Under the pieces are notes generated by a model. That model saw only the letters and a program-made list of their open reading frames with translations, was not told the DNA's origin and did not search any database. A DNA stretch of 64,000 nt from Candidatus Parcubacteria bacterium (GTDB lineage Bacteria > Patescibacteriota > Minisyncoccia > Phycocordibacterales > JAACPR01), in contig JBDLUA010000007.1 in assembly GCA_039805545.1 (NCBI GenBank), positions 1,252-65,251 of the forward strand, written 5' to 3'. The stretch's first letter is position 1. The number at the start of each line of letters is the position of its first letter. Shown here piece after piece: positions 15,198 to 64,000 of the stretch. The translations under genes were made by a program, and so were the position numbers.

Positions 15198-15455
15198 TAA
15201 AAATAAAAGAGATGAATGCGTGAGCATTCATCTCTTTTATTTTAGGAAGGCTTCGGGAATCGAACGGCGGAGGCCCAGGGTCCCTGTGTCTGTGAAGTGA
15301 AACGAAACAGACCTGGGATGGCCGAGCCGCGACCAACGGTACTTAGTGAATGAGGAGTTTACGACGAAATGAACTTAGTAACTGTGGGTCGATTCCACAA
15401 ATATTTTTCCCACACTCTTCTCTAATTATTTTTTTCTTCTGCTATACTATATTCA
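15198..15455. repeat. tRNA-downstream structured block R2 (paralog of 12161-12425)
   Basis: Terminator hairpin, GC-rich nested hairpin CCCAGG...GTCTGT...ACAGAC...CTGGG, and the shared block GAGTTTACGAcGAAATGAACTTAGTAACTGTGGGtCGATTCC. Confidence 0.4.
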
Positions 15456-21709: not shown

Positions 21710-21712
21710 ATT

Positions 21713-21750
21713 AAAAGGCGCGGCCCCTCCGGGGCCGCGCCTTTTTAAAA
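21713..21750. terminator. Intrinsic terminator GGCGCGGCCCCtccGGGGCCGCGCC + T-tract
   Basis: Hairpin plus TTTTTAAAA. Confidence 0.7.
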
Positions 21751-21770
21751 AACTATGCTAGTATAATTAC

Positions 21771-23846: not shown

Positions 23847-23929
23847 TAAGAACTCTATTTATAAAAGGGCGGACCCGAAGGGTCCGCCCTTTTCTTTACA
23901 ACACAATAATAATCACATACACTACCTGC

Positions 23930-26033: not shown

Positions 26034-26041
26034 TCTCTTAG

Positions 26042-26077
26042 AAAAAGGCGCGGCCCCGCAGGGGCCGCGCCTTTTTC
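26042..26077. terminator. Intrinsic terminator GGCGCGGCCCCgcaGGGGCCGCGCC + T-tract
   Basis: Hairpin plus TTTTTC after rplK. Confidence 0.7.
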
Positions 26078-26097
26078 AATATGATATAATTTCTTGT

Positions 26098-29754: not shown

Positions 29755-29821
29755 AGAGGTATTGTAGCAAATAAGAGAGATTGCAATATATTGACTTCAA
29801 ATATGTTTGTGTCGTTGTTGT

Positions 29822-29854
29822 ACGCGGTTTAACCCCGGCGGGGTTAAACCGCGT
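29822..29854. promoter_or_regulatory. Perfect 33-bp GC-rich palindrome ACGCGGTTTAACCCCGgCGGGGTTAAACCGCGT between divergent thyA-like and dCMP deaminase genes
   Basis: Exact reverse-complement symmetry. It lies in a divergent promoter region, so it is an operator candidate rather than a terminator. Confidence 0.45.
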
Positions 29855-29877
29855 CTTTTTCTTTTCTTCAAATCTGA

Positions 29878-32811: not shown

Positions 32812-34495
32812 TATGCAAGAAAAAATAAAACAATATATAGAAGAAATTTTAAAAGAACTTGAACTACCTCAAGTTAATTTTGATGTTGAACTTCCAAAAG
32901 ATATTTCAAATGGAGATTTTTCTACAAATATCTCTCTTGTACTTTCAAAACAAGTTGGGAAAAACCCAAAAGAAATTGCAGAACAAGTTTTAACTATTTT
33001 AAAAACAAAAAATTATCCCGAATTTTCTAATATCGAAATCGCCGGTCCTGGTTTCATAAACTTCTACCTTTCAAAAGAATATTTTGAATCTCAAATTGCA
33101 CAACCTGTTTCAAAAATAGAAACTCAATATACTGATAAAGAAATCATAATGGAATATATTGACCCTAATCCATTTAAACAATTTCACATCGGTCATTTGA
33201 TGGCTGGAACTATCGGTGAATCAATTTCAAGATTGTATGAACTTGGTGGAGCAGATGTAACACGAATGTGTTATCAAGGGGATATTGGCCCACATGTTGC
33301 AAAGTGTGTATGGGGAATGATTCAACATAAGGAAACATTTCCTCAAGATCAAGATTCAATTGAAGATAAAATAAAATTTATTGGAGATTCTTATGTATAT
33401 GGTGCAACTCAATATAAAGAAAGTCCTGAAGTAGAAATTGAAATAAAAGAACTAAATAAAAAACTTTTTGAAAAATCAGACGCAGAACTTCAAGTTTATT
33501 ATGAAAAGGGTAGAGCCTGGAGTCTTGAAGGTTTTGAATTGATGTATAAAAAAATTGGAACAAAGTTTGATACATATATGTACGAGACTCAAACAGCACC
33601 TATTGGAGAAAAACTTGTTCGAGAAAATCTCGCAAAGGGTATTTTTGAAAAATCAGAAGAGAGTGATGCAATTATTTATAAGGGTGAAAATGAAGGTCTT
33701 CATACTAGAGTATTTATAAATTCACAAGGGCTTCCAACATATGAAGCAAAAGACCTTGGTCTTGCTGTTGTTAAAAGTGAAATGGGAAATTTTGTACGAT
33801 CAATTGTAATTACAGGTGCAGAACAAACAGATTATTTTAAAGTAATGCTTGCAGCACTCTCAAAGATTAAGCCAGAAGAAGCACAAAAAACAACTCATAT
33901 AACGCATGGACTTATGCTGTTTAATGGAAAGAAGATGTCTTCACGAGAAGGTGCGCTTCTCGCAGATGACTTAATTGAAGAAACAAAACAAAAGGTTGAA
34001 GAGAAAATTGTTGGCCGAGAATATACAGAAGAAGAGAAAAAAGAAATTATCGAAGTCGTTGCAATCTCTGCACTTAAATATTCCATCCTCAAACAAACTC
34101 CAGGTAAGAATATTATTTTTGATTTTGAAAAATCAATTTCGTTTGAAGGGGACAGCGGTCCATATATTCAATACGCATATACAAGAGCAATGTCTATCTT
34201 AGGTAAGGTGGGGGAGGTTAATATGGATGCAAAAAATAATAAAGATACATATACAATTGAAAAACTTCTTATTCGATTTGAATCTGTAATCACAAGAGCA
34301 ATTAATGAACTTGCACCTCAACTTGTTGCAAATTATCTTGTAGAACTCGCTGGAGAATTTAATTCTTGGTATGCAAATGAGCGAATCATTGGTGACGAAA
34401 ATGAATCATACAAACTTCTTATTACAAAAAAAGTAGCGGAAGTTCTTAAAACAGGATTGAGTGTTCTTGGAATTAAGGTAACAGGGAAGATGTAA
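32812..34495 (+). CDS. argS: Arginyl-tRNA synthetase
   Basis: HIGH-region PNPFKQFHIGHL and the ArgS C-terminal anticodon-binding domain. Start taken at MQEKIKQY. A hairpin terminator for dut lies upstream. Confidence 0.9.
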
Positions 34496-34529
34496 AAGAA
34501 AATGGCGAACCCCGAAAGGTTCGCCATAA

Positions 34530-34994
34530 TTAGTGTAAGAGTTTTTCCAAAAAAACACTACTCAAAGGAAGACCAAGTTTTTGTTCAAGAATAGACCTCT
34601 CAATTTCCTTCAAAAAGTCAGGTTCATGGAAAAATCTGCAATTAGCAATGAAGATACATGGAACTTGAAAATCAAGAATGGTACCACGCCACCCATCGAT
34701 TATTCGATCGTCGATTTCTATGCGACTCGTATCCTTTTCAGAAGTGCAGAGTTCAGCATAAAGTTTTCGGTGAGCCCAATGATGATCATATGTAGTTCCA
34801 CAACAGGATTTTTTAGTGACAGGGTCGATTGCAAATCCTTCAACTTTGTCTCCTGCTGAAGCACTTTTTTTGTACCAACTGCCTTCCCTTTCTTCATGAT
34901 TACATGCTAAGTACCATGCTGTTTCAACTTGCTTCCAACCTTCTTTTGTCGAAGCAAGACTTTGAAGTCGTTCGTATTCTGCCTGAATGTTCAT
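34530..34994 (-). CDS. Hypothetical Cys/His-rich protein
   Basis: ORF only. Contains CNHEE, SCCGTTYDHHWAHRK, and CIFIANCRFFHEPD clusters. Locally elevated GC. Confidence 0.3.
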   Translation of the reverse strand: MNIQAEYERLQSLASTKEGWKQVETAWYLACNHEEREGSWYKKSASAGDKVEGFAIDPVTKKSCCGTTYDHHWAHRKLYAELCTSEKDTSRIEIDDRIIDGWRGTILDFQVPCIFIANCRFFHEPDFLKEIERSILEQKLGLPLSSVFLEKLLH

Positions 34995-36406: not shown

Positions 36407-39400
36407 ATGTCAGACACATCAAACAACGAACCAAATCTAAGTGCGGTTGCACAGAAGGAGAAGGAGATACTAGAGTTTTGGAATACAAATCAAATTTTTA
36501 AAAAATCTCTAGAAAAAGATTCACCAAAGGGGGAGTTTACTTTTTATGATGGTCCTCCTTTTGCAACAGGACTTCCTCACTATGGGCATATTCTCGCCGG
36601 AACAATGAAGGATGTGATTCCTCGATATAAGACAATGCTTGGATATCATGTTCGAAGACAGTGGGGTTGGGATTGTCATGGGCTTCCAATTGAGAAGATG
36701 ATTCAGTCTGAACATAATCTTACTACCAAAAAAGACATTGAAGAATTTGGTATAAAAAAATTTAACCAAGCTGCAAAGGCAAGTGTGTTTAAGTACGATA
36801 AAGAATGGAAACATACCGTTCCGCTTACTGGGCGATTTGTTGATATGGATACTTCGTATACAACAATGGATCCTTCTTTTACAAAATCAGTATGGTGGGG
36901 ATTTGGTGAAATTTATAAAAAAGGTTTGGTGTATGAAAGTTTCAAAGTAATGCATGTATCTCCACTTCTTGAAACAACGCTTTCTAACTTTGAAGTTAAT
37001 CAGGGATATCGAGATATCACAGATATCTCTGCAACAGTTAAATTTGAATTAGTTGATGAGCCAAATACATTTGTACTTGCATGGACTACAACTCCTTGGA
37101 CACTCCCTGGAAACGTTGCGCTCGCAGTAGGGAATGAAGTTATATATGTGAAACTTAAATTCGAAGATTCGTTTTACATTCTTGCAAAAGATTTGGTTGA
37201 AAAGAATTTTAAAGAAAAACAAATTGAAATCTCAGAAGAATATCTTGGAAGCGAACTTGTCGGAAAATCATATAAGCCAGTCTTTGAGTATTATGTAAAA
37301 GACAAGTCGCTTACAAATTATGAGAATGGATGGAAAATGTATCCTGCTGATTTTGTAACAACAACTGATGGAACAGGAATCGTACATATTGCTCCTGCCT
37401 TTGGAGAAGATGACCTCAATCTTGGCAAACAATTCAATCTTCCTTTTGTTCAACATGTAAAAATGAACGGAGAAATAAAAGAGGAGGTTACAGATCTTGC
37501 AGGACGACAAGCAAAGCCAAAGCATGATCCACAAGAGACTGATATTGAAGTAATTAAACTGCTTGCGCATAGAGGAACTCTTTTTGCAAAAGAAAAATAC
37601 ACTCACTCATATCCACATTGTTGGCGAACAGATGCGCCGCTTCTTAACTTCGCAACCTCATCATGGTTTATTAAAGTTACAGATCTTAAGGATCAACTTA
37701 TCAAGAATAACAACACTATTAAATGGGTTCCTGAAGCGGTTGGAACAGGACGATTTGGTAATTGGCTCAAGGAGGCAAAGGACTGGGCAATTTCTCGTTC
37801 ACGATTTTGGGGTACACCAATTCCAATTTGGAAATCAGAAGATAGGAAGGATGTAGAGGTGCTTTCATCTCTTGAACACATAAAAGAAAAAACAAAATCA
37901 ACCAACACCTATTTGGTTCTTCGACATGGAGAAGCTGAACATAACATTTCAAAGACAACTTCTGATACAAATGAAGTGCCTAGTCATCTAACACAAAAAG
38001 GCAAAGAACATATCTCACAAGTTGCACAAACTTTGAAAAATAAAAAAATAGATTTTATTTTTGTTTCACCTCTTATGCGAGCGCAAGAGACTGCAGAGAT
38101 TGTAAAAGAATGGTGTGGTCTTAATTCTGATCAAATCATCACAGACGAACGACTCAAAGAAGTTCAAACAGGATTCAATGGAAAGAGTAATGATGAATAT
38201 AAAAACTTTTTCAAAAATCTTGAAGATAGATATGAACATAAACATGAGTTGGGGGAGTCACTCCTTGATATAAAAAAGCGAGTAGGAGATTTTATCTATG
38301 ATATTGATTCAAAATATTCAAATAAAAATATTCTTATTATTTCGCATGAATACCCAATCTGGATGTTGATGTCTGTTAAGGATGGATTGAATAAAACACA
38401 AACACTTGCACTAAAAGAAATGGAAAGAGAGTTTGTTAAGACTGGTGATGTTGAAGAATTAGATTTTGCAAAGATTCCTCATGACGATAACTTTGAACTT
38501 GATTTTCATCGGCCTTATATCGATGAAATTACCTTTGTTCAAAATGGAAAAACATTTAGACGAATCGAAGATGTGTTTGATGGATGGATTGATTCAGGTG
38601 CAATGCCATTTGCAAGTGCAGGATATCCGTATTCAAAAAATGTATTCAAGCCAGGAAACTTTTTCTTCAAAGATAAAGGATTTCCAGCGGACTTTATTGC
38701 GGAAGGACTTGATCAAACACGAGGGTGGTTTTATACATTACTCGTATGGTCAACAGCACTCTTTGGAAAGGCTCCATTTAAACATGTAATTGTAAATGGA
38801 CTTGTACTTGCTGAGGATGGAAAGAAGATGGCTAAGTCTTTAAGGAATTATCCAGCTGTTGAAGATGTTCTATATAAGTATGGCGCAGATGCACTTCGAT
38901 ATTATTTGATGAGTTCAACTGCAGTAAAGGCAGATGACTTGAGATTTTCAGAGAAAGGAGTAGACGAGTCGATGAAGAAGATTGTAATGCGGCTTGATAA
39001 TGTGATTACATTCTATGAAATGTATAAGGATGATTCTGTTGTGCCAAGTAATTCAAGCTCACACATATTGGATAAATGGATTATTGCTCGACTCGCACAG
39101 ACAACTTCAGAAATTACAAAAGCACTTGAAGGATACGAACTTGATAAGGCTTCACGACCACTTATGGATTTTGTAGATGATCTCTCTACCTGGTACCTTC
39201 GAAGAAGTCGAGATAGATTGAAGTCAGATGGCGAAGATAAAAATCTTGCACTTGCAACACTCAGGTATTCACTTCGAGAATTTGCAAAAGTGATGGCACC
39301 AATTATGCCATTTAAGGCAGAGGACACCTATCTTCGAACACGAGAGATGAATGAAGTAGAAAGTGTTCATCTCTGTGCATGGCCTACAAATAATTCATTT

Positions 39401-39892
39401 GATGAAAGTATTCTTGTTGGAATGAAAGAAGTGCGAGATGTTGTAACTAAAGCACTTGAAGTTCGAGCTAAGGAAGCAATTAAGGTTCGACAGCCAATTC
39501 AAACTCTTGAAGTTAAAATTGCACTTGCTGATGAGTATAAAGATATTATTAAGGACGAAGTGAATGTAAAAGATATTGAGTTTAATGCACAACTTGAAAC
39601 TGATGTGTGGCTTGATACTACAATTACTCCAGAACTCAAAGAAGAGGGAGATGCACGAGAACTAATTCGAGCATTACAAGATCTTCGAAAGTCATCAGAA
39701 CTCTCTCCAGAAGATACAATCGTAGTACATCTTGCATGTTCAAGTGAATTCAAAACTATTGTAGAAAAATATTCTGACTTGATTCAATCAGTAACTCGAA
39801 CTCAAGAAATTATTTTTGAAAGTGAGTTACCTAGTGAGGAGATTGTATTGAATGAGTTTAAGGTGAAGGTGGTGGTGAGGAAGGTGGGGTAG
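36407..39892 (+). CDS. ileS: Isoleucyl-tRNA synthetase with an inserted histidine-phosphatase (PGAM-like) domain
   Basis: HYGH (HIGH), editing domain, and KMAKS (KMSKS). About 190 aa between PIWKSEDRK and DFHRPYIDEITF carry the RHGE, SPLMRAQETA and ISHE motifs of the histidine phosphatase superfamily. Total length is 1161 aa. Confidence 0.9.
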   Translation: MSDTSNNEPNLSAVAQKEKEILEFWNTNQIFKKSLEKDSPKGEFTFYDGPPFATGLPHYGHILAGTMKDVIPRYKTMLGYHVRRQWGWDCHGLPIEKMIQSEHNLTTKKDIEEFGIKKFNQAAKASVFKYDKEWKHTVPLTGRFVDMDTSYTTMDPSFTKSVWWGFGEIYKKGLVYESFKVMHVSPLLETTLSNFEVNQGYRDITDISATVKFELVDEPNTFVLAWTTTPWTLPGNVALAVGNEVIYVKLKFEDSFYILAKDLVEKNFKEKQIEISEEYLGSELVGKSYKPVFEYYVKDKSLTNYENGWKMYPADFVTTTDGTGIVHIAPAFGEDDLNLGKQFNLPFVQHVKMNGEIKEEVTDLAGRQAKPKHDPQETDIEVIKLLAHRGTLFAKEKYTHSYPHCWRTDAPLLNFATSSWFIKVTDLKDQLIKNNNTIKWVPEAVGTGRFGNWLKEAKDWAISRSRFWGTPIPIWKSEDRKDVEVLSSLEHIKEKTKSTNTYLVLRHGEAEHNISKTTSDTNEVPSHLTQKGKEHISQVAQTLKNKKIDFIFVSPLMRAQETAEIVKEWCGLNSDQIITDERLKEVQTGFNGKSNDEYKNFFKNLEDRYEHKHELGESLLDIKKRVGDFIYDIDSKYSNKNILIISHEYPIWMLMSVKDGLNKTQTLALKEMEREFVKTGDVEELDFAKIPHDDNFELDFHRPYIDEITFVQNGKTFRRIEDVFDGWIDSGAMPFASAGYPYSKNVFKPGNFFFKDKGFPADFIAEGLDQTRGWFYTLLVWSTALFGKAPFKHVIVNGLVLAEDGKKMAKSLRNYPAVEDVLYKYGADALRYYLMSSTAVKADDLRFSEKGVDESMKKIVMRLDNVITFYEMYKDDSVVPSNSSSHILDKWIIARLAQTTSEITKALEGYELDKASRPLMDFVDDLSTWYLRRSRDRLKSDGEDKNLALATLRYSLREFAKVMAPIMPFKAEDTYLRTREMNEVESVHLCAWPTNNSFDESILVGMKEVRDVVTKALEVRAKEAIKVRQPIQTLEVKIALADEYKDIIKDEVNVKDIEFNAQLETDVWLDTTITPELKEEGDARELIRALQDLRKSSELSPEDTIVVHLACSSEFKTIVEKYSDLIQSVTRTQEIIFESELPSEEIVLNEFKVKVVVRKVG

Positions 39893-39964: not shown

Positions 39965-40579
39965 TCAGAGAAGTCTGTGATGCATTTCCTCAATCAATCT
40001 GCGAATTCTCCATTCGAGGTCCCCACCTGCAGTAAGATCAGTCTTAGGTGGTAACACAATCCAGTTCGGTGGAATATGTTTTCCTTCGCGGTTCATATTT
40101 TTTCTTGTGAATTTTCCTAAGACAAATATTCCAGCAAAGTTGTCTTTAGGATTACCCAGACTCTCTGCTAGGTACAGATCTGTCGTAAGTACAATATCGG
40201 GACTTCTTCTTGGATTTTCGATCAGATTGATTAGTCCTATTTCACGAAGAGAAATCGCGATATCTGCAAATTTCGAGTAATCAGGATCAAATTGACTGTA
40301 TAGATTGCCACAGTAGAGGTTTGCAGGACGATACCGTAAGGTTCTCAAGCGACACTGCAAGAGTCCGCCGTGTTTTTCCCAAAAGCGGCATGTTTCCTTT
40401 GAAATGTCGCGTGGTTGATTCACTGCTAATGGACCAGTCAATGTGAGCAATTGAGCGAGTGTAGCTCTGTCTTCCGGACTGCATGTTGGTCCACCATCTT
40501 CGATATTGTGTTTTCCAGGAGTGTTCATTTCTGTGGTTTCCTTCTTTTGTTTATTTTGAATAGGAGCAGTTAGGCTCAA
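39965..40579 (-). CDS. Hypothetical protein, compositionally GC-rich relative to neighbours
   Basis: ORF only. No family confidently recognised. GC is clearly above the local background. Confidence 0.35.
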   Translation of the reverse strand: MSLTAPIQNKQKKETTEMNTPGKHNIEDGGPTCSPEDRATLAQLLTLTGPLAVNQPRDISKETCRFWEKHGGLLQCRLRTLRYRPANLYCGNLYSQFDPDYSKFADIAISLREIGLINLIENPRRSPDIVLTTDLYLAESLGNPKDNFAGIFVLGKFTRKNMNREGKHIPPNWIVLPPKTDLTAGGDLEWRIRRLIEEMHHRLL

Positions 40580-41234: not shown

Positions 41235-41422
41235 TTAGCACGTCATCCCTGTTCTCAATTACGTCATCCTCGCGAAGGCGAGGATCCAGTCTGTATCAAA
41301 GAAATATAATTAGCAAAAGGCAAACCCTTTGGGTTTGCCTTTTGCAGTCCTGGATCCTCGCCTTCGCGAGGATGACGTACTAATGTTGCCCTCGAGCAAA
41401 TGTTAGGATGACATGCTAATTG
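41235..41422. repeat. MITE-like GC-rich hairpin repeat, copy 2 (composite, with internal terminator-like hairpin)
   Basis: TTAGCACGTCATCC...CGTCATCCTCGCGAAGGCGAGGATCCAG / AAAAGGCAAACCCtttGGGTTTGCCTTTTGC / CTGGATCCTCGCCTTCGCGAGGATGACGTACTAA, plus a partial extra end GGATGACATGCTAATTG. Confidence 0.6.
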
Positions 41423-46360: not shown

Positions 46361-46421
46361 TGAAGTTAAAGGGGTGGCCCCTGCGGGGCCACCCCTTTAA
46401 CTTGCATACTTTTGTGATACT

Positions 46422-47507
46422 ATGAACTGTATGAAAGACTCAAATCAACCAATATCTATTCATATTACAAGCGGAACAATTATTAAAGGAATCGTTATAT
46501 TACTTCTTGTGTATCTTGGATTTATTCTAAGAAATCTTTTGTTGGTGATTCTTACTTCTGTAGTAATCGCGTCAGCGGTTGAACCAATTACTAAGTGGTT
46601 TATGAAAAAACGAATTCCAAGATCTCTTGCTGTGGTAACTATTTATCTTGGAGTCTTTGTTGCAATTGCAGGTATTACAACAGTGGTAATACCTCCTCTT
46701 GCTGAAGATATAAGAGCAACTCTTATAACTCTTCCACAGTATGTTCAAGCAATTAGTCCTCAAGATTTAGAAAAAGTTCCAGGACTTTCTCTTATATTTA
46801 ATCAATTCACAAATTCACTGAGTTCTGGAGATTTAATTCAACAAGTAGGAGGGTACGCAGGCAAAGCTACATTTGGATTCTTTCAGACAGCAGGAACAAT
46901 CTTCGGTAGTTTGTTAAGTTTTGTGATGATTATCGTTATTTCATTTTATCTTGCAGTTCAAGATGATGGAGTTTCAAGTTTCTTGAGAGTTGTTACACCT
47001 ATTAAACATGAAAAATATATTATTGATTTGTGGAAGCGAGCACAAAAAAAGATTGGTCTATGGATGCAAGGACAACTTCTTCTTGGGGTAATCGTCGGAG
47101 TACTCACATACCTAGGATTGAGTATCCTTGGTGTTGAGAATGCGTTGCTTCTTGCTCTTATTGCAGCAGTATTTGAGCTTATTCCAATCTTCGGGCCAAT
47201 TCTTTCTGCAATTCCAGCAATTGGAATCGCTCTCATTCAAGATGGATTTTCTTTGGCTCTTATTACACTTGGGTTATATTTGATTATTCAACAATTTGAA
47301 AACCACCTAATTCACCCATTGGTAGTAAAGAAAATTGTAGGAATTCCTTCACTCCTTGCTATTTTGTCTTTGATTGTTGGGGCACAACTTGCAGGATTTC
47401 TTGGAATGATTATCGCTGTTCCGGTAGCTGCCGCTTTGATGGAGTATCTTTCTGATGTAGAAAAAGATAAAGTTGCAGAACTTGAAAAACTCAATCCAAA
47501 GGCGTAA
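46422..47507 (+). CDS. AI-2E family transporter (PerM/UPF0118)
   Basis: Eight predicted TM helices, with the LIPIFGPILSAIPAIGIALIQ signature region. Confidence 0.7.
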   Translation: MNCMKDSNQPISIHITSGTIIKGIVILLLVYLGFILRNLLLVILTSVVIASAVEPITKWFMKKRIPRSLAVVTIYLGVFVAIAGITTVVIPPLAEDIRATLITLPQYVQAISPQDLEKVPGLSLIFNQFTNSLSSGDLIQQVGGYAGKATFGFFQTAGTIFGSLLSFVMIIVISFYLAVQDDGVSSFLRVVTPIKHEKYIIDLWKRAQKKIGLWMQGQLLLGVIVGVLTYLGLSILGVENALLLALIAAVFELIPIFGPILSAIPAIGIALIQDGFSLALITLGLYLIIQQFENHLIHPLVVKKIVGIPSLLAILSLIVGAQLAGFLGMIIAVPVAAALMEYLSDVEKDKVAELEKLNPKA

Positions 47508-47518
47508 GGTTAAGAATT

Positions 47519-48967
47519 ATGAAAGAAAAAAAGAATTTTTATATCACAACCACATTGCCATATGTGAATGCAAAGCCACATATTGGATTTGCTATTGAAG
47601 TTATTCGAGCAGATGCTATTGCTCGATTCATGCGAAAGATGGGAAAAAATGTTTTTTTCAATACTGGAACAGATGAACATGGAGTAAAGATTTTTCTTAA
47701 GGCTCAAGAAGTGGGAATCACTGCGCAACAACTTGTAGATAAGAATGCAGAACTTTACAAAGAATTAATGCAAAAGCTTACTATCTCAAATGATGCATTT
47801 ATTCGAACGACAGACGAGGTTCATATTAAATCTGCACAAGCATTTTGGAATGTATGTAATGAAAAAGGATATATAGAAAAGAGAACATATTCAGGACTTT
47901 ATTGTCGGGGGTGTGAGTTATTTAAAACAGAAAGAGATTTGGTAGATGGAAAGTGTATAGATCATCCAACAACTCCACTTGAACAAATTTCAGAAGAAAA
48001 TTATTTCTTCCTTTATTCAAAGTTTGCACAAGACCTTTTAAATTTATATGAACAAAAAGATTTTGTTATTCCGGAATTTCGTTTGAATGAAATTAAAAAT
48101 CAAATTAAAGAAGGACTCGAAGACTTTAGTATCTCTCGAGTAAAAGAAAAAATGCAATGGGGGATTCCAGTTCCAGGCGATGATACTCAAGTGATGTATG
48201 TATGGTTTGATGCGCTTGTAAACTATATTTCTACTATTGGTTGGCCACACAATATGGAGCAATTTAATACATTCTGGAATCCAGAAGTTTCTACAATGGT
48301 TCAAATTTGTGGAAAGGACAATCTTCGACAACAAAGTGCAATGTGGCAGGCAATGCTTATTGCAGCAGGGCTTCCAGCAACATCTCACATTATTATTAAT
48401 GGATTTGTAACATTAAATGGTCAAAAGATTTCAAAAAGTCTTGGAAACACAATTGACCCGCTTGATGTGGTGAATGAGTTTGGTGTGGATGCGCTTCGAT
48501 ACTTCGCAATTCGAGAACTAAGCCCGTATGAAGATGGGGATTTTGATACGAATCGATTCAAAGAGGCGTACAATGCAAATCTTGCAAATGGTATTGGTAA
48601 CCTTACAAACCGAATTCTCAAAATGGCGCAAGACAATATTTCAAAGAGTGATGTTGTATTATCTGATACTGCCTTTCATCAAATCGGAGACTATGTAGAT
48701 GCAATGTATTCTTTGAATCTAAATTTTGCATCACATATTGCCTGGCATCATATTGCAGAACTTGATAAATACATTCAACAAACAGAACCATTCAAACTTG
48801 TAAAAACAAATCCAGAAGAAGGAAAAAAGATCATTGCAGAACTTGTTTCAAGACTTCATACAATTGCACATATGGTAGAACCATTTATCCCAACTGCCTC
48901 AAAACAAATATTTGATGCGATAGAGAAGTTTGAGAAGCCTGAAGTACCAGTGTTTAATCGGATATAA
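47519..48967 (+). CDS. metG: Methionyl-tRNA synthetase
   Basis: HIGH region PHIGFA, KISKS (KMSKS), and a Zn-knuckle CRGCELF. Confidence 0.9.
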   Translation: MKEKKNFYITTTLPYVNAKPHIGFAIEVIRADAIARFMRKMGKNVFFNTGTDEHGVKIFLKAQEVGITAQQLVDKNAELYKELMQKLTISNDAFIRTTDEVHIKSAQAFWNVCNEKGYIEKRTYSGLYCRGCELFKTERDLVDGKCIDHPTTPLEQISEENYFFLYSKFAQDLLNLYEQKDFVIPEFRLNEIKNQIKEGLEDFSISRVKEKMQWGIPVPGDDTQVMYVWFDALVNYISTIGWPHNMEQFNTFWNPEVSTMVQICGKDNLRQQSAMWQAMLIAAGLPATSHIIINGFVTLNGQKISKSLGNTIDPLDVVNEFGVDALRYFAIRELSPYEDGDFDTNRFKEAYNANLANGIGNLTNRILKMAQDNISKSDVVLSDTAFHQIGDYVDAMYSLNLNFASHIAWHHIAELDKYIQQTEPFKLVKTNPEEGKKIIAELVSRLHTIAHMVEPFIPTASKQIFDAIEKFEKPEVPVFNRI

Positions 48968-48971
48968 AAAT

Positions 48972-49739
48972 ATGAAATACATCGACATACACGCTCATCT
49001 CGACTTTCCGGACTTTAATCCTGATAGACAAGAAATTCTTGCTGATATGCAATCTCAAAGCATTGGTCATTTTAATATTGGTACATGTGTAGAGACAAGC
49101 AAAAACTCAATTTTTCTTGCAGAAGAAAATGAACATGTATGGGCGATTGTTGGAATTCATCCACTTAATGTTGATGAATCAAAAATAGAAGATGTTGTAG
49201 TGATTGAATCTCTTGTCTCACATCCTAAATGTCTTGCAATAGGAGAGTGTGGTCTTGATTTTTTTCGAGAAGATAACGAAGAGATTCGAACAAGACAAAC
49301 AGAATTTTTTAAAAAACAAATTGAACTTGCGATTAAGTACAACAAACCTCTGATGATTCATTGTCGAAGTGCGTATCCTGAAACATTAGAAATCCTTGAA
49401 TCATACAAAGTACAGAATCCAAGTCTTCATGCACACTTTCATTTTTTTACAGAAACTATTGAGATTGCAAAAAGAATTCTTTCTCAAGGTTGGACACTTT
49501 CATTTACGGGCCCGATTACATTTGCTAATTATGATGAACTTGTAAAATTTGTGCCAGTTGAATCTCTTATGGTTGAAACAGATGCTCCATATGCCTCTCC
49601 AAAGTCAAAAAGAGGACAGAGAAACGATCCACGAAATGTAATCGAAATACTAGCCAAAATAGCCCAAATAAAGGCTATTCCACACGATGAACTCGCTCAA
49701 AAAATACGAGAGAATGTGAGAAGAGTGTTTCATATTTAA
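48972..49739 (+). CDS. tatD: TatD-family metal-dependent hydrolase/DNase
   Basis: MKYIDIHAHLDF start, GECGLD and HCR motifs. Confidence 0.85.
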   Translation: MKYIDIHAHLDFPDFNPDRQEILADMQSQSIGHFNIGTCVETSKNSIFLAEENEHVWAIVGIHPLNVDESKIEDVVVIESLVSHPKCLAIGECGLDFFREDNEEIRTRQTEFFKKQIELAIKYNKPLMIHCRSAYPETLEILESYKVQNPSLHAHFHFFTETIEIAKRILSQGWTLSFTGPITFANYDELVKFVPVESLMVETDAPYASPKSKRGQRNDPRNVIEILAKIAQIKAIPHDELAQKIRENVRRVFHI

Positions 49740-49781
49740 GCATTGATAGACAAAGTTTTTGCAAGATGACATAATTTAGTT

Positions 49782-50006
49782 ATGGAATCAAACAAAAGAA
49801 GTAGTGTATTTGGAGTAATGTCATTTATTTTCGGTGTATTTTCTATTTATTTACCTGCCGCAGTGATTTGTTTAATGGCATCAATTCTTTTTGGGGTAAT
49901 TGCGATAAAATCTAAAAGTAAGGCTAAATTAGCAATTTTTGGTATTGTTATTGCTATTATTTCTAATATATTTTTACTAATAACTGCTGGACAAATCACT
50001 GGTTAG
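49782..50006 (+). CDS. Small two-TM membrane protein
   Basis: Hydrophobic ORF only. Confidence 0.3.
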   Translation: MESNKRSSVFGVMSFIFGVFSIYLPAAVICLMASILFGVIAIKSKSKAKLAIFGIVIAIISNIFLLITAGQITG

Positions 50007-50081
50007 AGAGTCGCCTAGTAGTCTTTTCTTTACTGTAGGACACCTTGTATTTACCCTAAAACCGTGGTAATCTAAGCTCCT

Positions 50082-50606
50082 ATGGCTAAAAAAGTAATAG
50101 AATCAGTACAAGATGAAAAAGACATGAAACTCTATGAGTATTCATTCCACCTTGTTCCAAAAATGTCGCAAGAAGACGCAGTGTCGGCATTTACTGATAT
50201 AAAAAATCAAATCACTGCAACAGGAGCCATTATTAAAAACGAGTCAGCTCCTGCATTACTCAATCTTGCATATTCAATGGATCACACAGTTGAATCAGTA
50301 CGATCACATTACAATCAAGCATATTTTGCTTGGGTAGTGTTTGAGGCAACTGGTGACCAAATCAATGCATTAAAAGAAGAAATCAAACACCGAAACGATA
50401 TTATTCGAGATTTGCTCATTACAACAAAGAACGAATCTCCAATTTCATCAGCAGATGTTGCATCAGTTTTGAGTGTAGAAGATAAAAACGCTCCACAAGA
50501 AGCTGAAGTAGAAGTAGTTGAAACAATAGAAGAAACTACTGAAGAAGCTGAAGAATCAGAAGATGATAAAAAAGTAGACGAAGCTATTGATAAGCTCGTT
50601 GAATAG
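50082..50606 (+). CDS. rpsF: 30S ribosomal protein S6 with acidic C-terminal extension
   Basis: The YEYSFHLVP...LAYSM...AYFAWVVFEA pattern fits the S6 fold. rpsF-ssb-rpsR synteny. Confidence 0.75.
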   Translation: MAKKVIESVQDEKDMKLYEYSFHLVPKMSQEDAVSAFTDIKNQITATGAIIKNESAPALLNLAYSMDHTVESVRSHYNQAYFAWVVFEATGDQINALKEEIKHRNDIIRDLLITTKNESPISSADVASVLSVEDKNAPQEAEVEVVETIEETTEEAEESEDDKKVDEAIDKLVE

Positions 50607-50667
50607 TTCTAAAGAAAGGATAAAGTTTTTGGTTGACTATTATAAGTCACTTTGAGAACATAAATAT

Positions 50668-51129
50668 ATGTATATAAATAAAGCAATATTAATCGGGAAT
50701 CTCACACGAGATCCTGAGAAGCGAGCATTACCAAACGGTACAATTGTTACTTCACTTGCACTTGCAACCAATCGAGTCTGGAAGGACCGAGATGGCAAAA
50801 AACAAGAAAGTACTGATTATCACAACGTCGTAGTATTTGGACGACCAGCTGAGACAGCTGCACAGTACCTCAAAAAAGGTCAAAGTGTATATGTTGAAGG
50901 TCGAATCCAAACTCGAAGTTGGGATGATAAGGATGGAAGTAAAAAGTATCGAACCGAGATTGTTGCAGATTCTGTACAATTTGGTGCGAAGGCAGGTGGA
51001 ACAGGATCATATGGTTCTGAATCAGCCCCAGCAGATGCTCCAACATCAATTGCGAGTGAACCAGCAGACGTAGGAGGTCAAATAGACTATCCAACAGATG
51101 ACATCAACCCAGAAGATATTCCTTTCTAA
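50668..51129 (+). CDS. ssb: Single-stranded DNA-binding protein
   Basis: OB-fold MYINKAILIGNLTRDPE...YHNVVVFGR and acidic tail ending DIPF. Confidence 0.9.
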   Translation: MYINKAILIGNLTRDPEKRALPNGTIVTSLALATNRVWKDRDGKKQESTDYHNVVVFGRPAETAAQYLKKGQSVYVEGRIQTRSWDDKDGSKKYRTEIVADSVQFGAKAGGTGSYGSESAPADAPTSIASEPADVGGQIDYPTDDINPEDIPF

Positions 51130-51151
51130 TTATTAAGATAAAACACACAGT

Positions 51152-51349
51152 ATGAAAGATTATTTTGAAGAAAATCAAATCAAACATATCGACTACAAAG
51201 ATATTTCTGTATTGAGTAAATTCATCAACCCATTCGGACGAATTCTATCTCGAAAACGAACAGGACTTACAGCTAAGAACCAACGAAAACTTGCAAACGC
51301 TATCAAGCGAGCACGATTCATGGGACTTATGCCATATCTTCGAAGTTAA
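51152..51349 (+). CDS. rpsR: 30S ribosomal protein S18
   Basis: KDISVLSKFI...RKRTGLTAKNQRKLANAIKRARFMGLMPY. Confidence 0.9.
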   Translation: MKDYFEENQIKHIDYKDISVLSKFINPFGRILSRKRTGLTAKNQRKLANAIKRARFMGLMPYLRS

Positions 51350-51411
51350 TATAATACAAAAGGCGCGGCCCAAAGGGCCGCACCTTTTGTATTATTTGGT
51401 ATACTTATTTC

Positions 51412-51777
51412 ATGATACGAACAAAAAAAGGAAAAATTAAAGCACTTATACAAGCAGGGGTGATTATGTTCTTTGGACTTATACTTTTTAAATTAATACC
51501 AATGGAAATCTTTGGAAGAGATATTAAATTTGATGCTTCTGCACATATAACTATTAGTATGTTTGTTTTGTATGTACTCTGGTTTTTTATTGATCAAAAT
51601 AAATCTTGGAGAGTTGCGTATTTTATTTTTGCATTGGTTGTTCTTACAGTAGTCTCGGTACAAAGAATTCTCATGAATGCGCATAATGATATTGGTTTAC
51701 TCGGAGGGTTGTTGCTCTCCTTGATTGCGATTATGTATTCTCAAAGAAACTACTTTAAAGATAAATTTAAATTTTAA
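51412..51777 (+). CDS. Hypothetical membrane protein (3-4 TM)
   Basis: Hydrophobicity only. Confidence 0.35.
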   Translation: MIRTKKGKIKALIQAGVIMFFGLILFKLIPMEIFGRDIKFDASAHITISMFVLYVLWFFIDQNKSWRVAYFIFALVVLTVVSVQRILMNAHNDIGLLGGLLLSLIAIMYSQRNYFKDKFKF

Positions 51778-51782
51778 ATTTA

Positions 51783-51820
51783 AAATAAAAGGCGGCCCCG
51801 CAGGGGCCGCCTTTTATTTT
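51783..51820. terminator. Bidirectional intrinsic terminator GGCGGCCCCgcaGGGGCCGCC (identical 21-mer to 5255-5275)
   Basis: Hairpin between convergent genes with A/T runs on both sides. Confidence 0.7.
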
Positions 51821-51824
51821 CTAA

Positions 51825-52409
51825 CTAGGCTCGTTCTACGTATATATTTTCAGCTGTATTCACAACAATACTATCACCCTCATTCACAAAAAGAGGAGTA
51901 GTAATCATTGCACCTGTTTCTATTTTTACAAGCTTGTCTCCACCTTGAGCTGTATTTCCTCGTACTGCAGGAGGGGCTTCAACAACTTTAAATGTCATTT
52001 TAATTGGAAGAGTGATACCAATTACTTCATCATTATAAAGAAGTGCATCTACTTCGCAGTTTTCTTTCAGATACTTTGTTGCATCTCCAAGAAGGTCTTT
52101 CATTAGACATGCTCGATTTGCTCGTTTGTCTCGATCAAAGAACCAGTATTCATCAACTCCTGTTTGACGATTACTTTTTACAAAAGAAAAAACATATTTC
52201 TTTTTTGCAAGATCTGCTTCTTCTGCGGTATCTTGAACATGAAATGTCTCTTGTCGAACCGAACCATTAATAAGATTTCGAAGCTTTGTTTGGTTAACAG
52301 GCTTTCGCTGTTGTTTTCTAAATACATGAGCATCAAGTACTTCATAGGGATCTCCATCGAGTACAATATATTTTCGCTCTTTTATTTCATTGTAATTTAA
52401 TATCGCCAT
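51825..52409 (-). CDS. efp: Elongation factor P (variant loop lacking PGKG)
   Basis: Three-domain EF-P pattern with C-terminal GD.I.V.T..G.Y. The loop reads FRKQQRKPVNQTKLRNL instead of KPGKGQAFARVKLR. Confidence 0.8.
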   Translation of the reverse strand: MAILNYNEIKERKYIVLDGDPYEVLDAHVFRKQQRKPVNQTKLRNLINGSVRQETFHVQDTAEEADLAKKKYVFSFVKSNRQTGVDEYWFFDRDKRANRACLMKDLLGDATKYLKENCEVDALLYNDEVIGITLPIKMTFKVVEAPPAVRGNTAQGGDKLVKIETGAMITTPLFVNEGDSIVVNTAENIYVERA

Positions 52410-52455
52410 AGTCTCCCCATACTAACAAAATATGTTCAAAAGGGAAGGGGAAATA

Positions 52456-53478
52456 TTATTCTTTTGCAGCCTCTTCTTTAAATTTTTTCTTAATCAAGTC
52501 AAGCACTTCTTTTGTTACTTTTGGATTTTCTTTAAGGAATGTTCGTGTTGCATCATATCCTCGTCCAAGTTTTACTTCACCAAATGCATATGATGCTCCA
52601 GATTTTTGAATGATGTCATATTTTTCTCCGAGAGCAATGATTTCTCCTTCTTTTGAAATACCTTCGTTGTACATCAAGTCAAACTCAGTAACTTTAAATG
52701 GAGCCGCCACCTTATTTTTTACAACTTTGATTCGACATCGTCCTCCCATAATCTCTTCTCCTTTTTTGATTTGAGCAATTCTTCTAATATCAAGTCGAAC
52801 AGAAGTATAGAACTTAAGGGCCTTTCCTCCCGGAGTAGTTTCTGGATTACCAAACATTACACCAATTTGCATTCGAATTTGGTTGATAAAGATTACAACC
52901 GTCTTACTCTTCGATGTGATTCCTGTGAGCTTTCGGAGAGCCTGTGACATAAGTCGGGCTTGTTTACCTACATGGTGTGCTCCCATTTCTCCTTCAATCT
53001 CGTCTTTTGGAGTGAGAGCAGCAACTGAGTCGATTACAATTACATCCATTTTTCCACTTCGAACTAGACTCTCAACAATTTCAAGTGCTTGTTCTCCTGT
53101 ATCGGGTTGTGAAATAAGAAGTTCATCGAGCTTTACTCCGAGTCGTTTTGCGTATTCTGGATCAAGTGCATGTTCTGCATCAATAAATGCACAAATACCG
53201 CCTTTTTTTTGTGCTTCTGCAATGGCATGAAGGGTGAGGGTAGTCTTACCTGATGATTCTGGACCAAATACTTCAATGATTCGTCCTCGAGGGTATCCTC
53301 CTACACCAAGTGCCTCGTCAAGACCTATCGAGCCAGATGGAATTGCATCGACGTTTGTTTTTGGTCGATCCCCAAGTTTCATAATTGCTTCTTCTCCAAA
53401 TTTTGATTTTATTTCTTTAAGTGTATCTTCAATTGAACTGTCTGATGTTACTGTTGGTTTTGTTTTTTTCTTTGCCAT
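52456..53478 (-). CDS. recA: Recombinase RecA
   Basis: GPESSGKTT Walker A and IDAEHALD. L1/L2 loop regions are near consensus. Confidence 0.95.
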
Positions 53479-53548
53479 GTTCTTTACTATTACATATCTG
53501 TCTAATAATTCTATAAAAAAATTCTAAAATCCGGTTGAAGATGGAATA

Positions 53549-53614
53549 CCGTCATCCTCGCGTATGCGAGGATCCAGAAATAATCACTGGATTCCCGCCT
53601 TCGCGGGAATGACG
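53549..53614. repeat. MITE-like hairpin repeat, copy 3 (short form, two adjacent hairpins)
   Basis: GTCATCCTCGCGtatGCGAGGATCCAG ... GGATTCCCGCCTTCGCGGGAATGACG. Confidence 0.55.
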
Positions 53615-54099
53615 TTTTCCGAAGTTGAAGTTGCTGTATCTGTATTTGTTGATTCAGATTCTTCCATTTCTTCAATTGTTGAAGATGCGGATAGGGTACG
53701 AAGAGCTATTTGTTCGATTTGTTCTGTAGAGCTTGAAGTATCTTCTCCAGTGTAAACTACATCAATTTTTTTTCGAACTTCTTTACCAAATTTATCTCTG
53801 GCATATATATCAATTATACTTACTCCATTCGAAAGGAGCAATTTTTCATTGAAATTACCAAATTCATCAACAAGAATTGGTCGATTATTAATTGTTATAT
53901 AAGAAGAGTGAGTGGCGATGCCTTGAAGAGAGAAGTCTTTTGATGTTGTCTCTATGACCTCTTTGTCTTCTTCAAGACCTGCAATTGCGATCTCCGGACC
54001 TCTTAATATGAACCTGCTATTAAACAATCCATAACTAATCAAAAAAAGTATAGCGATAGAAAGAATCAATTTTTGAGGTGTAATGGTGTTGCTGGGCAT
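53584..54099 (-). CDS. Hypothetical N-terminally anchored protein (C-terminus runs into the repeat)
   Basis: N-terminal TM. The C-terminal ...VIPAKAGIQ is repeat-derived, so the true stop is uncertain. Confidence 0.35.
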   Translation of the reverse strand: MPSNTITPQKLILSIAILFLISYGLFNSRFILRGPEIAIAGLEEDKEVIETTSKDFSLQGIATHSSYITINNRPILVDEFGNFNEKLLLSNGVSIIDIYARDKFGKEVRKKIDVVYTGEDTSSSTEQIEQIALRTLSASSTIEEMEESESTNTDTATSTSENVIPAKAGIQ

Positions 54100-56357: not shown

Positions 56358-56436
56358 ACGTCATCCTCGCGAAGGCGAGGATCCAGGATTACATAACATC
56401 TATCGTGCCTGGATTCCTGCCTCCGCAGGAATGACA
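56358..56436. repeat. MITE-like hairpin repeat, copy 4
   Basis: ACGTCATCCTCGCGAAGGCGAGGATCCAGG...CCTGGATTCCTGCCTCCGCAGGAATGACAAC. Confidence 0.55.
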
Positions 56437-56603
56437 ACATTCTCGCCCCTTTTATAATACCTTTATTTTAACACACCTGTGGATAAATATCCTTACTGTA
56501 TAAAGCTCAAATATAAAAGACTGTCCTATATTTGCTTTATTTTTTAAAAAGAGATAATGTCCTATATATAGGAGATATTTCTATAAAAGACATATAAGAA
56601 TAT

Positions 56604-59785: not shown

Positions 59786-59852
59786 TATGTGTTCCAGGGT
59801 TAAACTGCGACAATTTCTTTATAAAGATTTGAGTGCGGGTAAGTATATTTAA

Positions 59853-62954: not shown

Positions 62955-63095
62955 TACGCCATCCTCGATCCTAATTACGTCATCCTCGCGAAGGCGAGGA
63001 TCCAGGACTGCAAAAGGCAAACCCGAAGGGTTTGCCTTTTGCTTTTATTTTGAAAATTAAACTAGATCCCCGCCTTCGCGGGGATGACGTGCTAA
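62955..63095. repeat. MITE-like GC-rich hairpin repeat, copy 5 (with internal AAAAGGCAAACCCgaaGGGTTTGCCTTTTGC hairpin)
   Basis: Same architecture as copy 2, ending GGGGATGACGTGCTAATG. Confidence 0.6.
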
Positions 63096-63238: not shown

Positions 63239-63266
63239 TTGACATTATTTTGAATCTGACTATAAT
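63239..63266 (+). promoter_or_regulatory. Consensus sigma70-type promoter TTGACA-16nt-TATAAT, presumed 23S rRNA promoter
   Basis: Exact -35 and -10 hexamers about 240 nt upstream of the 23S 5' end. Confidence 0.6.
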
Positions 63267-63507
63267 AGCACTTACACGATGTTGAATTATTTAAAAAAGA
63301 ACTGTAAGACGGTCTAAAAAAGAGGGTTTTAAACTCACTTCAAAAGACTGCCACCGCAGTCTTTTTTGAAAAAATAAACTCGTGAGTTCGTTGACAATAA
63401 AATATGTGAATTAAGAGTCAAAGTAGTCAATTAATTTTCACGAGAAAATTTGAGACAAGTTAGATAAAAGCTAAGAAAAAAGTTATGTGGTGGTTTTAAG
63501 ATTTCCT

Positions 63508-64000
63508 AATAGGAAATTAAGAGCATATAGTGGATGCCTTGGCTTCTAGAGACGATGAAAGACGTGGTATGGCTGCGATAAGCTTCGGGGAGGTGCCTAA
63601 CAACCTTCGATCCGGAGATGTCTGAATGGGGTAACCCAGCTGAGCAAACCTCAGTTACCCAATCTTGTAAAGAGAGCGGGAGTGAACCTTGGGAAGTGAA
63701 ACATCTCAGTACCAAGAGGAAAAGAAAAAAAGTTCCGTAAGGAAAAGATTTCCTGAGTAGCGGCGAGCGAAATGGAATAAGCCCAAACCGTATGTATTCG
63801 TATATACGGGGTTGTAAGACGATAAGACTCCAGTACTCTATTTCCTACTTCCAGCAATGGAAATAGGGATAAAGTACTGGATAATGGTTACAAATTGATT
63901 AGCTAGTGGAACTTTCTGGAAAGAAAGACCCTAGAGGGTAATAGTCCCGTACGCGAAAGCGAATCAACCATTTTTATTGTTCTTGAGTAGCTCAGGACAT
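63508..64000 (+). rRNA. rrl: 23S ribosomal RNA, 5' portion (continues beyond window)
   Basis: GGATGCCTTGGC, GAAACATCTCAGTACC, and GAGTAGCGGCGAGCGAAA are universally conserved 23S domain I blocks. Confidence 0.9.

Follow-up and report, generated by a model that had tools for sequence, protein, structure and literature searches.

What are the short, GC-rich double hairpins that recur between the genes of a Candidatus Parcubacteria genome? The question arises from a 64,000-nt stretch of a Candidatus Parcubacteria contig (the window), in which the original prediction described five copies of a repeat resembling miniature inverted-repeat transposable elements (MITEs). The five elements are very probably head-to-head dimers of CGTC-1 repetitive extragenic palindromes (REPs), the same family as the dRS3/NTS repeats of Neisseria and the SRM motif. 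Taken as a whole, the best explanation, and a likely one, is that they are CGTC-1/NTS dimers, inverted pairs without a gene, which may act here as hairpin sites in single-stranded DNA (ssDNA) for an Ssn-type nuclease. This is not a new kind of element, the family having been described in 2000, 2013, and 2025. The new point is a dense set of CGTC-1/NTS repeats with recent turnover in a tiny-genome member of the Parcubacteria, within the candidate phyla radiation (CPR), a lineage that appears in neither of the two key papers.

The window contains ten hairpin arms arranged as five inverted pairs, numbered 1 to 5 along its length, where the chance expectation is 0. Consensus sequences for the two shared ends matched 4 and 8 times with three mismatches allowed, against 0.00 expected from 100 dinucleotide-preserving shuffles, and these were confined to the five places first reported. 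Both the locations and the shared ends proposed earlier were therefore confirmed. A structure-aware scan (tag, 8-bp stem, 4-nt loop, and stem) returned ten arms and no more, all of them with 8/8 stem pairs, and relaxed scans of the window added only weak AT-rich chance matches. The G+C content of the window is ~35%, so the arms stand out as GC islands. Rfam covariance models at the gathering score matched only tRNAs and 23S rRNA in the window, and none of the arms. The elements are listed below, with each arm as tag, stem, loop, stem, and tail where its sequence is given, and with the span returned by the structure-aware scan in brackets.

Copy 1, 3061-3190: head-to-head heterodimer with a 64-nt spacer (RNA fold z = -6.0); extended tags at 3061-3066 (TTAGCA) and 3185-3190.
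Copy 1 left arm, 3067-3093 (+) (scan 3067-3090+): CGTC ATCCTCGT GTAT ACGAGGAT CCA.
Copy 1 right arm, 3158-3184 (-) (scan 3161-3184-): CGTC ATCCCCGC GGAG GCGGGGAT CCA.
Truncated arm-like segment, 41235-41261 (+): TTAGC ACGTCATCCCTGTTCTCAAT TA, directly 5' of the copy 2 left arm and homologous to 62956-62977 in copy 5.
Copy 2, 41262-41383: head-to-head homodimer with a 62-nt spacer that holds a terminator-like hairpin; extended tag TACTAA at 41378-41383.
Copy 2 arms, left 41262-41288 (+) (scan 41262-41285+) and right 41351-41377 (-) (scan 41354-41377-): both CGTC ATCCTCGC GAAG GCGAGGAT CCA.
Copy 3, 53550-53614: head-to-head heterodimer with an 11-nt spacer.
Copy 3 left arm, 53550-53576 (+) (scan 53550-53573+): stem ATCCTCGC, loop GTAT.
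Copy 3 right arm, 53588-53614 (-) (scan 53591-53614-): CGTCATTCCCGCGAAGGCGGGAATCCA.
Copy 4, 56359-56436: head-to-head heterodimer with a 24-nt spacer; left arm 56359-56385 (+) (scan 56359-56382+).
Copy 4 right arm, 56410-56436 (-) (scan 56413-56436-): TGTC ATTCCTGC GGAG GCAGGAAT CCA.
Copy 5, 62956-63095: truncated arm-like segment 62956-62977; left arm 62978-63004 (+) (scan 62978-63001+); extended tag TGCTAA at 63090-63095.
Copy 5 right arm, 63063-63089 (-) (scan 63066-63089-): CGTC ATCCCCGC GAAG GCGGGGAT CTA.

All ten arms follow one grammar, reading 5' to 3' as an unpaired (C/T)GTC tag, an 8-bp stem, a 4-nt loop, the complementary stem, and a C(C/T)A tail, which agrees with the earlier view that each arm is itself a hairpin. 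The tag is CGTC in nine arms and TGTC in one, the tail is CCA in nine and CTA in one, and the loop is GAAG in six, GGAG in two, and GTAT in two. The first two stem pairs are A-T and T-A, all eight pairs form in every arm, and the GTC ahead of the palindrome and the C behind it are kept in 10/10. All five pairs are head-to-head, with tags outside and tails facing each other across spacers of 64, 62, 11, 24, and 58 nt (copies 1-5). Six arms carry TTAGYA or a close variant directly 5' of the tag, an extension that is absent from all 243 loci of other organisms compared.

How a pair folds depends on the identity of its arms. A self-comparison of the window shows the arms of copy 2 to be inverted over 30 nt and 100% complementary, and this homodimer folds as one 30-bp hairpin (-88.5 kcal/mol, z = -15.6), whereas each heterodimer forms either a mismatched fold or one separate hairpin per arm (z -5.5 to -11.4). 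Copies 2 and 5 have in common a 68-nt block made up of an arm and a terminator hairpin (41312-41379 vs 62976-63043, opposite orientation, 99%) and a 50-nt block made up of the truncated arm and an arm (direct orientation, 88% identity), which indicates that the elements are mosaics. A single local duplication was ruled out as the source of the copies, given that they lie 3-38 kb apart in unrelated contexts and that the motif occurs in hundreds of unrelated genomes; the dispersed family proposed at the outset is thereby borne out.

The architecture is that of a published family. CGTC-1 repeats are defined by a CGTC/TGTC/CCTC tag, an 8-bp stem starting A-T, a 4-nt loop, and a CCA tail (Di Nocera 2013, BMC Genomics 14:522; PMC3733652). 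They are found mainly as head-to-head dimers with 20-100 bp spacers that sometimes contain small stem-loops, have no associated transposase, and have been equated with Neisseria dRS3 and R. conorii RPE-6 (PMC3733652). The window elements share the tag, stem, loop, tail, head-to-head dimers, spacer stem-loops, and lack of a flanking transposase, and their spacers (11-64 nt) lie within the published range or slightly below it. Locations are also alike, CGTC-1 units being mostly intergenic between co-directional or convergent genes and occasionally intragenic. The differences are that Patescibacteria/Parcubacteria are not among the five phyla listed (PMC3733652) that ATCCTCGC/GCGAGGAT is the dominant stem variant in the window, and that the TTAGYA extension is an extra feature there.

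Comparison with Neisseria leads to the same family. The SRM pattern HGTCWYN(0-2)YYVSBRHN(0-5)WNVSBRGN(0-2)RNCYNB has eight matches in the window, all of them arms (8/10), against 0.11 on average and never more than 1 in the shuffled window; extrapolated from these eight matches in 64 kb, the density is ~125 SRM per Mb. At 53587-53614 (-), the copy 3 right arm extended by one base fits the NTS consensus of N. meningitidis, CGTCATTCCCGCGMAVGCGGGAATCYRG, without a mismatch, and seven more arms are within 4 mismatches of it, mostly through compensated stem changes. N. lactamica arms differ from the copy 3 right arm by one loop base. In the dRS3/NIME repeats of Neisseria (Parkhill 2000; Bentley 2007, PMC1797815), GC-rich hairpin arms flank an AT-rich RS spacer of 19-214 bp, and dRS3-RS-dRS3 units are tied to strain-variable loci and recombination, like the window copies (PMC1797815). 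The strict dRS3 form, ATTCCC-N8-GGGAAT, is found in one of the ten arms, the others having ATCCTC, ATCCCC, or ATTCCT, and the window has isolated arm-spacer-arm units only, in contrast to the dRS3 arrays of several units.

Two further systems are instructive. Rickettsia RPE-6 and Wolbachia CGTC repeats belong to the same CGTC superfamily (PMC3733652) and can enter coding regions and add peptides, as copy 3 does; RPEs are typically in-frame insertions inside genes, whereas copy 3 replaces a C-terminal tail only. REPIN/RAYT systems also combine non-autonomous inverted pairs of tagged hairpins with a small enzyme that acts on ssDNA hairpins and whose gene is flanked by the repeats. They use a GTAG tag and an HUH/Y1 transposase, in contrast to the CGTC tag and GIY-YIG nuclease of the present family, and no match to RAYT/Y1_Tnp was found among the ~50 open reading frames (ORFs) of the window.

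The family is widespread. The 27-nt pattern GTCATYCYYGCGNAGGCRRGRATCCAG was scanned in genomes of GTDB and in viral contigs, with at least 120 stretches in each, and 240 loci were fetched. Among the genome matches listed are Proteobacteria, Neisseria, a Rickettsia endosymbiont, Nitrospirota, Planctomycetota, Dehalococcoidia, Cloacimonadota, a metagenome-assembled genome (MAG) of Nanoarchaeota, and four other Patescibacteria MAGs (loci L145, L212, L227, and L233). The 240 loci contain 463 arms, paired head-to-head (79), tail-to-tail (32), or head-to-tail (33) with a median spacer of 56 nt, and the tail is CCA in 396/463. In Rhodopseudomonas pentothenatexigens (L143, 5845-7310), six same-strand arms at a regular spacing of ~312 nt form a tandem array with one arm per unit, unlike the usual dimers.

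Does the stem evolve as a stem? The original prediction had noted paired substitutions that preserve it and had drawn from them selection on structure at the DNA or RNA level. In 16 distinct arms taken from the window, close relatives, Neisseria, one Nanoarchaeota MAG, and one Saccharibacteria MAG, 100% of cells are standard pairs and five of the eight pairs change on both sides, in 16 cells. The observed covariation score was reached by 0/500 shuffles, and sliding the partner by 1-3 columns lowered pairing to 23-54%. An independent set of 317 arms, fetched by a pattern that allows non-complementary Y/R combinations, gave T-A 273, C-G 39, and other 5 at positions 5-20, and C-G 294, T-A 18, and other 5 at positions 8-17. 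The paired, stem-preserving substitutions are thus real. Selection on structure is plausible as their cause. The published partner enzyme reads the hairpin in ssDNA and not in RNA; hairpin-templated repair may be an alternative source of the paired changes.

The dominant window stem, ATCCTCGC/GCGAGGAT, is rare elsewhere, with 0/317 arms in the pattern-fetched set, 4/463 in a relaxed scan, and, in a scan made for this stem alone, three viral stretches, all high-GC. From this scarcity it has the look of a compensated variant specific to the lineage and amplified in the present host. A metagenome scan with the host-specific extended arm TTAGYACGTCATCCYCGCGRAGGCG returned eight stretches, six from high-GC organisms and two on short low-GC contigs. 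The viral scan for the host stem variant, with all three of its stretches high in GC, gave no CPR phage vector.

Window RecA and RecO are each 100% identical to proteins of a Candidatus Parcubacteria MAG, and related strains show how stable the elements are. Gain, loss, or replacement is seen in orthologous loci at three of the five sites. Strains with 86-99% RecO identity have four different alleles of the RecO-DUF11 spacer, the site of copy 2. The window allele has the CGTC-1 homodimer with its terminator cargo, a 99% RecO strain has a different head-to-head dimer from a 5-nt-loop family (TGTC ACCCCGAA CTTGT TTCGGTGT CTCG ...), a 90% strain has a single arm from the 5-nt-loop family, and an 86% strain has no REP. 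The truncated segment at 41235-41261 is missing from the empty allele (L270) and so is part of the inserted block. The flank downstream of copy 2 groups the window with the 86% strain and not with the 99% strain, which points to recombination.

Copy 3 is intact or half-decayed in 99% RecA strains (one arm is decayed in L255) and absent from 96% and 92% RecA relatives, in which the gene keeps a different, longer C-terminal tail. Copy 4 is present in a 99% strain, and a diverged 5-nt-loop dimer sits at the site in a 96% strain. Copy 5 is absent from the syntenic relative L261, where the MscS-terminator-promoter-23S order is kept. In short-read assemblies of this population, contigs break off precisely at arms. 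The mobile-repeat view held earlier fares well as far as presence and absence are concerned, with copies 3 and 5 absent from syntenic relatives and four states at the copy 2 site. These alignments support elements that behave as insertions coming and going between close strains, and the turnover at the RecO, RecA, and 23S-upstream sites shows that the family is active now, or was very recently, in this lineage.

Several observations accompany the strain comparison. An outer pairing around copy 2 in the predicted fold, 41235-41250 with 41406-41421, was considered as an older second element and ruled out. The right half, an 'outer right arm' with GGATGACATGCTAATT at 41406-41421 (+), corresponds to GGATGATGCATTAATT at the same place in the REP-free allele L270, which marks it as ancestral flank. 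A 5-nt loop characterises the second tagged-REP family (TGTC, 8-bp stem, CTTGA/CTTGT, and tail CTC), which resembles the CGTC-2 type. It also occurs in other Patescibacteria/DPANN MAG loci (L145, L155, L227, and L233), and the one arm found in 14 kb of additional host sequence is of this related family. Its units in this lineage are as follows.

5-nt-loop REP, L271 7265-7289: ~1.1 kb upstream of window position 1.
5-nt-loop REP, L266 3595-3664.
5-nt-loop REP, L258 1891-1915.

In the 99% RecA strain L255, gene order differs from window 47500-53500 around RecA, EF-P, PAP2, S18, SSB, S6, and TatD, which indicates a putative inversion or rearrangement near repeat-bearing spacers. The 204-aa ORF at 39965-40579 (-), between IleRS and RecO, has no Pfam match and has a GC hairpin of its own; neither the 99%-identical L266 nor L268 contains it, which makes it a strain-specific insertion of ~700 nt.

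Presence and absence between strains would also be expected of classical MITEs, i.e., deletion derivatives of a DDE-type insertion sequence (IS) that are moved in trans by its transposase via terminal inverted repeats. The inverted ends of 27-30 nt, the length of 65-140 bp, the intergenic position, and the lack of coding capacity fit such an origin as well. Bacterial MITEs such as Correia/NEMIS, RUP, and ERIC are likewise small and non-coding with inverted ends, affect neighbouring genes, and carry promoter or terminator signals. However, IS-type terminal inverted repeats and target-site duplications, both typical of MITEs, are not seen in the window copies. The outer edges of the five copies show no direct repeat of ≥3 nt, and no transposase Pfam domain was found in the ~50 window ORFs. 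The arms also fold on themselves, are oriented, and elsewhere occur singly, tail-to-tail, or in tandem, unlike DDE-type terminal inverted repeats. A classical MITE origin is thus highly improbable, and the MITE-like label of the original prediction survives only as a loose description of oriented REP units.

Which protein, then, goes with the arms? Clustering of ORFs no more than 300 nt from an arm in the fetched loci gave two recurrent neighbours, an IS110-family transposase and a GIY-YIG protein of ~95 aa. A hidden Markov model (HMM) of six Ssn-like GIY-YIG seeds found 12 relatives in the 240 arm-fetched loci, 10/12 of them between a head-to-head pair with a 304-384 nt spacer. A protein-first search gave 38 viral-contig loci, with arms on both sides in 15/38 and on at least one side in 21/38; the published figures for arm flanking of ssn are 42% and 71% (Chenal 2025, PMC11893778). 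A GIY-YIG gene between arms was considered as an unreported 'REPtron', which was ruled out because the arrangement was published in 2025 as Ssn/NTS (PMC11893778). A GIY-YIG gene of a Paceibacterota in L233 was ruled out as an Ssn beside arms, being UPF0213 or intron-endonuclease-like and lying between tRNA-like sequences. NCBIfam has no name for Ssn-like proteins, and a PDB sequence search with them returned only the UPF0213 structures 1zg2 and 1ywl.

Ssn is a family of single-domain GIY-YIG nucleases, cd10448 (Chenal 2025, Nat Commun 16:2388; PMC11893778). SsnA of N. meningitidis binds the NTS hairpin (CGTCATTCCCGCGMAVGCGGGAATCYRG, which contains dRS3) in ssDNA only and on one strand only, and, as read from the published oligo lengths, cuts 3 nt 5' of the motif (PMC11893778). 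In mutagenesis of this system, cleavage needs the three bases ahead of the palindrome and binding needs the C just after it (PMC11893778). SsnA lowers transformation by NTS-bearing DNA and does not act on RNA, and the NTS-ssnA-NTS arrangement has been noted as IS-like (PMC11893778). Among genomes with >200 SRM, 81% have ssn and 19% are without it (PMC11893778). The window shares with this system the SRM fit of 8/10 arms, one exact NTS, the invariant GTC and C, and the inverted pairs. It differs in that no ssn was found between or near the window arms and the spacers hold a terminator or nothing, and CPR hosts go unmentioned in the paper (PMC11893778).

A mechanism built on this enzyme would run as follows. 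In ssDNA states, whether in replication, repair, or competence uptake, each arm would fold into its hairpin, which would be a binding and cleavage site for a small single-domain GIY-YIG Ssn nuclease. The window pairs would be non-autonomous, gene-less derivatives of the IS-like NTS-ssn-NTS unit, spread and reshuffled by the Ssn enzyme, by homologous recombination between strains, or by both. The host extension TTAGYA, just 5' of CGTC, would span the position of the SsnA cut. Three of these steps we infer: that the host or a donor has an Ssn, that Ssn spreads the pairs beyond what recombination alone does, and that TTAGYA marks the cut site. That the Ssn-based mechanism holds for this particular host is put, on this analysis, at somewhat under an even chance.

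Several points weigh against extending the Neisseria mechanism to this host. With the HMM at E <= 10 and filters off, no Ssn-like ORF was found in the window, in 8.4 kb upstream (L271), or in ~6 kb past the rRNA operon (L276), nor in ~90 kb from relatives and other Patescibacteria loci; with no homologue in the ~78 kb of host sequence searched, a cognate enzyme is only putative for the host. Transposition by Ssn is itself raised only as a hypothesis (PMC11893778). The strict dRS3/NTS consensus is confined to one of the ten arms, and the dominant stem ATCCTCGC/GCGAGGAT is scarce outside the host. Alignments with relatives contain no clean empty site, the sites being rearranged or holding other REPs, so insertion boundaries and mechanism are not readable from them.

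That no Ssn gene was found in the sequence searched would fit a different history, in which the repeats are relics of an orphaned CGTC-1/NTS family in a host without Ssn or any partner, kept by drift, hairpin-templated repair, and inter-strain recombination. No Ssn gene is present in any host-lineage sequence examined, decayed or truncated arms exist (41240-41259, 62956-62975, and one copy 3 arm in L255), and CGTC families have been proposed to be near extinction (Di Nocera 2013, PMC3733652). Against this, the 68-nt module is 99% identical at two loci, a 99% RecO strain holds a different dimer at the copy 2 site, and 10/10 window arms have perfect 8/8 stems, some of which long neutral decay should have broken. 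A relic origin therefore seems rather doubtful. The reading of the arms as Ssn-type sites could be taken a step further, in that the compensated stem and TTAGYA may reflect an Ssn-type nuclease that is specific to this lineage, is co-evolving, and acts on ssDNA that is entering the cell or being replicated, a proposal that is tentative.

The other recurrent neighbour raises the possibility that the arms are attachment or target sites for an IS110/Piv-type recombinase, as dRS3 is for neisserial filamentous prophages. An IS110-family transposase (PF01548 + PF02371) adjoins arms in five fetched loci, and Nf phages integrate into dRS3 according to published work. But there are no IS110 or phage genes among the window ORFs, and such a recombinase would explain the use of the sites and not their origin or paired architecture, which makes this a very unlikely account of the window elements.

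A role in RNA has to be weighed against the gene context. Copy 1 lies between convergent SpoU and Fpg genes, copy 2 between co-directional RecO and DUF11 genes, copy 3 between a Glucodextran_B-like gene and RecA, copy 4 between divergent FtsK and HTH genes, and copy 5 between an MscS-like gene (stop 62947) and the 23S gene (start 63507). The claim that all copies are intergenic holds apart from copy 3, which is not purely so, its right arm providing the last 9 codons and stop (VIPAKAGIQ*) of a real gene, 53584-54099 (-). The internal terminator-like hairpins reported earlier in the two long copies both score as intrinsic terminators.

Copy 2 cargo hairpin, 41313-41345: GCAAAAGGCAAACCC-TTT-GGGTTTGCCTTTTGC with A/T-run flanks, scoring as an intrinsic terminator and inverted relative to the copy 5 module.
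Copy 5 cargo hairpin, 63010-63042: scoring as an intrinsic terminator and followed by a T-run.

From its sequence, the hairpin at 41313-41345 looks like a bidirectional intrinsic terminator. The arms themselves are without T-runs and were not scored as terminators, a score confined to the spacer hairpins of copies 2 and 5. Ordinary bidirectional terminators of the genome form a separate eight-copy family of GC-rich hairpins with A-run and T-run flanks (AAAAGGCGGCCCCGCAGGGGCCGCCTTTT), which the cargo hairpins of copies 2 and 5 resemble.

AAAAGGCGGCCCCGCAGGGGCCGCCTTTT terminator copies: 5243-5287, 21707-21751, 23856-23900, 26037-26081, 34493-34537, 46361-46405, 51350-51394, and 51779-51823.

These data bear on whether the elements are host-selected RNA structures, acting as 3' stabilisers, terminators, or insulators in transcripts and unrelated to a DNA enzyme. 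Four of the five copies follow a gene 3' end, the folds are very stable (z -5.5 to -15.6), copy 1 is the sole hairpin between two convergent genes, and RNA roles have been favoured for many REPs (Di Nocera 2013, PMC3733652). The terminator signal belongs to the cargo only, however, and the genome has a separate family for that purpose. Moreover, conservation across phyla is as strong in the unpaired tag and tail as it is in the stem, which points to protein recognition, and SsnA is inactive on RNA (PMC11893778). An origin as RNA elements is accordingly unlikely. A role in RNA would be compatible with the reading as CGTC-1/NTS dimers, and is possible but secondary.

Copy 5 also stands ahead of the 23S promoter, as had been reported, with a perfect TTGACA-16-TATAAT at 63239-63266 between the copy and the gene. 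No 16S gene precedes this 23S gene (63239-64000 region), which stands after a protein gene under a perfect promoter of its own; the rRNA genes are thus unlinked. In L276, protein genes resume ~4 kb past the MscS-like gene. Read outward, the TGTC-tagged arm of copy 4 gives ATGACA-16-TATAAT at 56431-56458 (+), an 11/12 sigma-70-like match facing the HTH gene at 56604, so the tag is a possible outward -35 box.

The arms have practical consequences for annotation. The peptide motifs that they were said to introduce into spurious ORFs are present in the ORFs named (WIPAFAGMT, LDPRLRGDD, and RRHPREGEDPG...WIPASAGMT), and a literature search on the arm-coded peptides gave no matching paper. Such recurrent spurious peptides (..IPAFAGMT.., ..DPRLRGDD.., ..HPREGEDPG..), together with breaks in short-read assemblies and one real gene end rewritten by an arm, mean that masking the arms improves gene calls in CPR MAGs. 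The CGTC-REP/NTS-SRM family is extended to Patescibacteria, and the host offers a small, simple genome for asking what moves CGTC-type repeats and what Ssn does outside Neisseria. Organisms of this group probably depend on DNA uptake. If it exists, a lineage-specific Ssn would form a single-strand 'restriction' layer on competence in these bacteria; if the complete genome lacks ssn, the repeats would be spreading and keeping their form with no help from Ssn, the one enzyme known to read them.

Other features of the window lie apart from the REPs. At 36407-39892 (+), an IleRS-like gene of 1161 aa has a histidine-phosphatase domain, PF00300 (aa 504-658), inside the class-I synthetase core, and the same is found in relatives. 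A second small repeat family consists of the hairpin GGTTTAACCCCGGCGGG(G)TTTAAACC followed by a T-run, at 2479-2539, 29817-29877, and 59797-59833, with two copies 88% identical. Each stands just 5' of a gene (SpoU, dCMP deaminase, and PemK toxin), and, judged by its form, the hairpin could be a terminator or leader element. Finally, a 42-nt repeat, 95% identical between 12334-12375 and 15355-15396, lies ~200 nt 3' of tRNA-Arg and tRNA-His and ends in a T-arm-like GGGACGATTCC; it is not called a tRNA by ARAGORN or Rfam.

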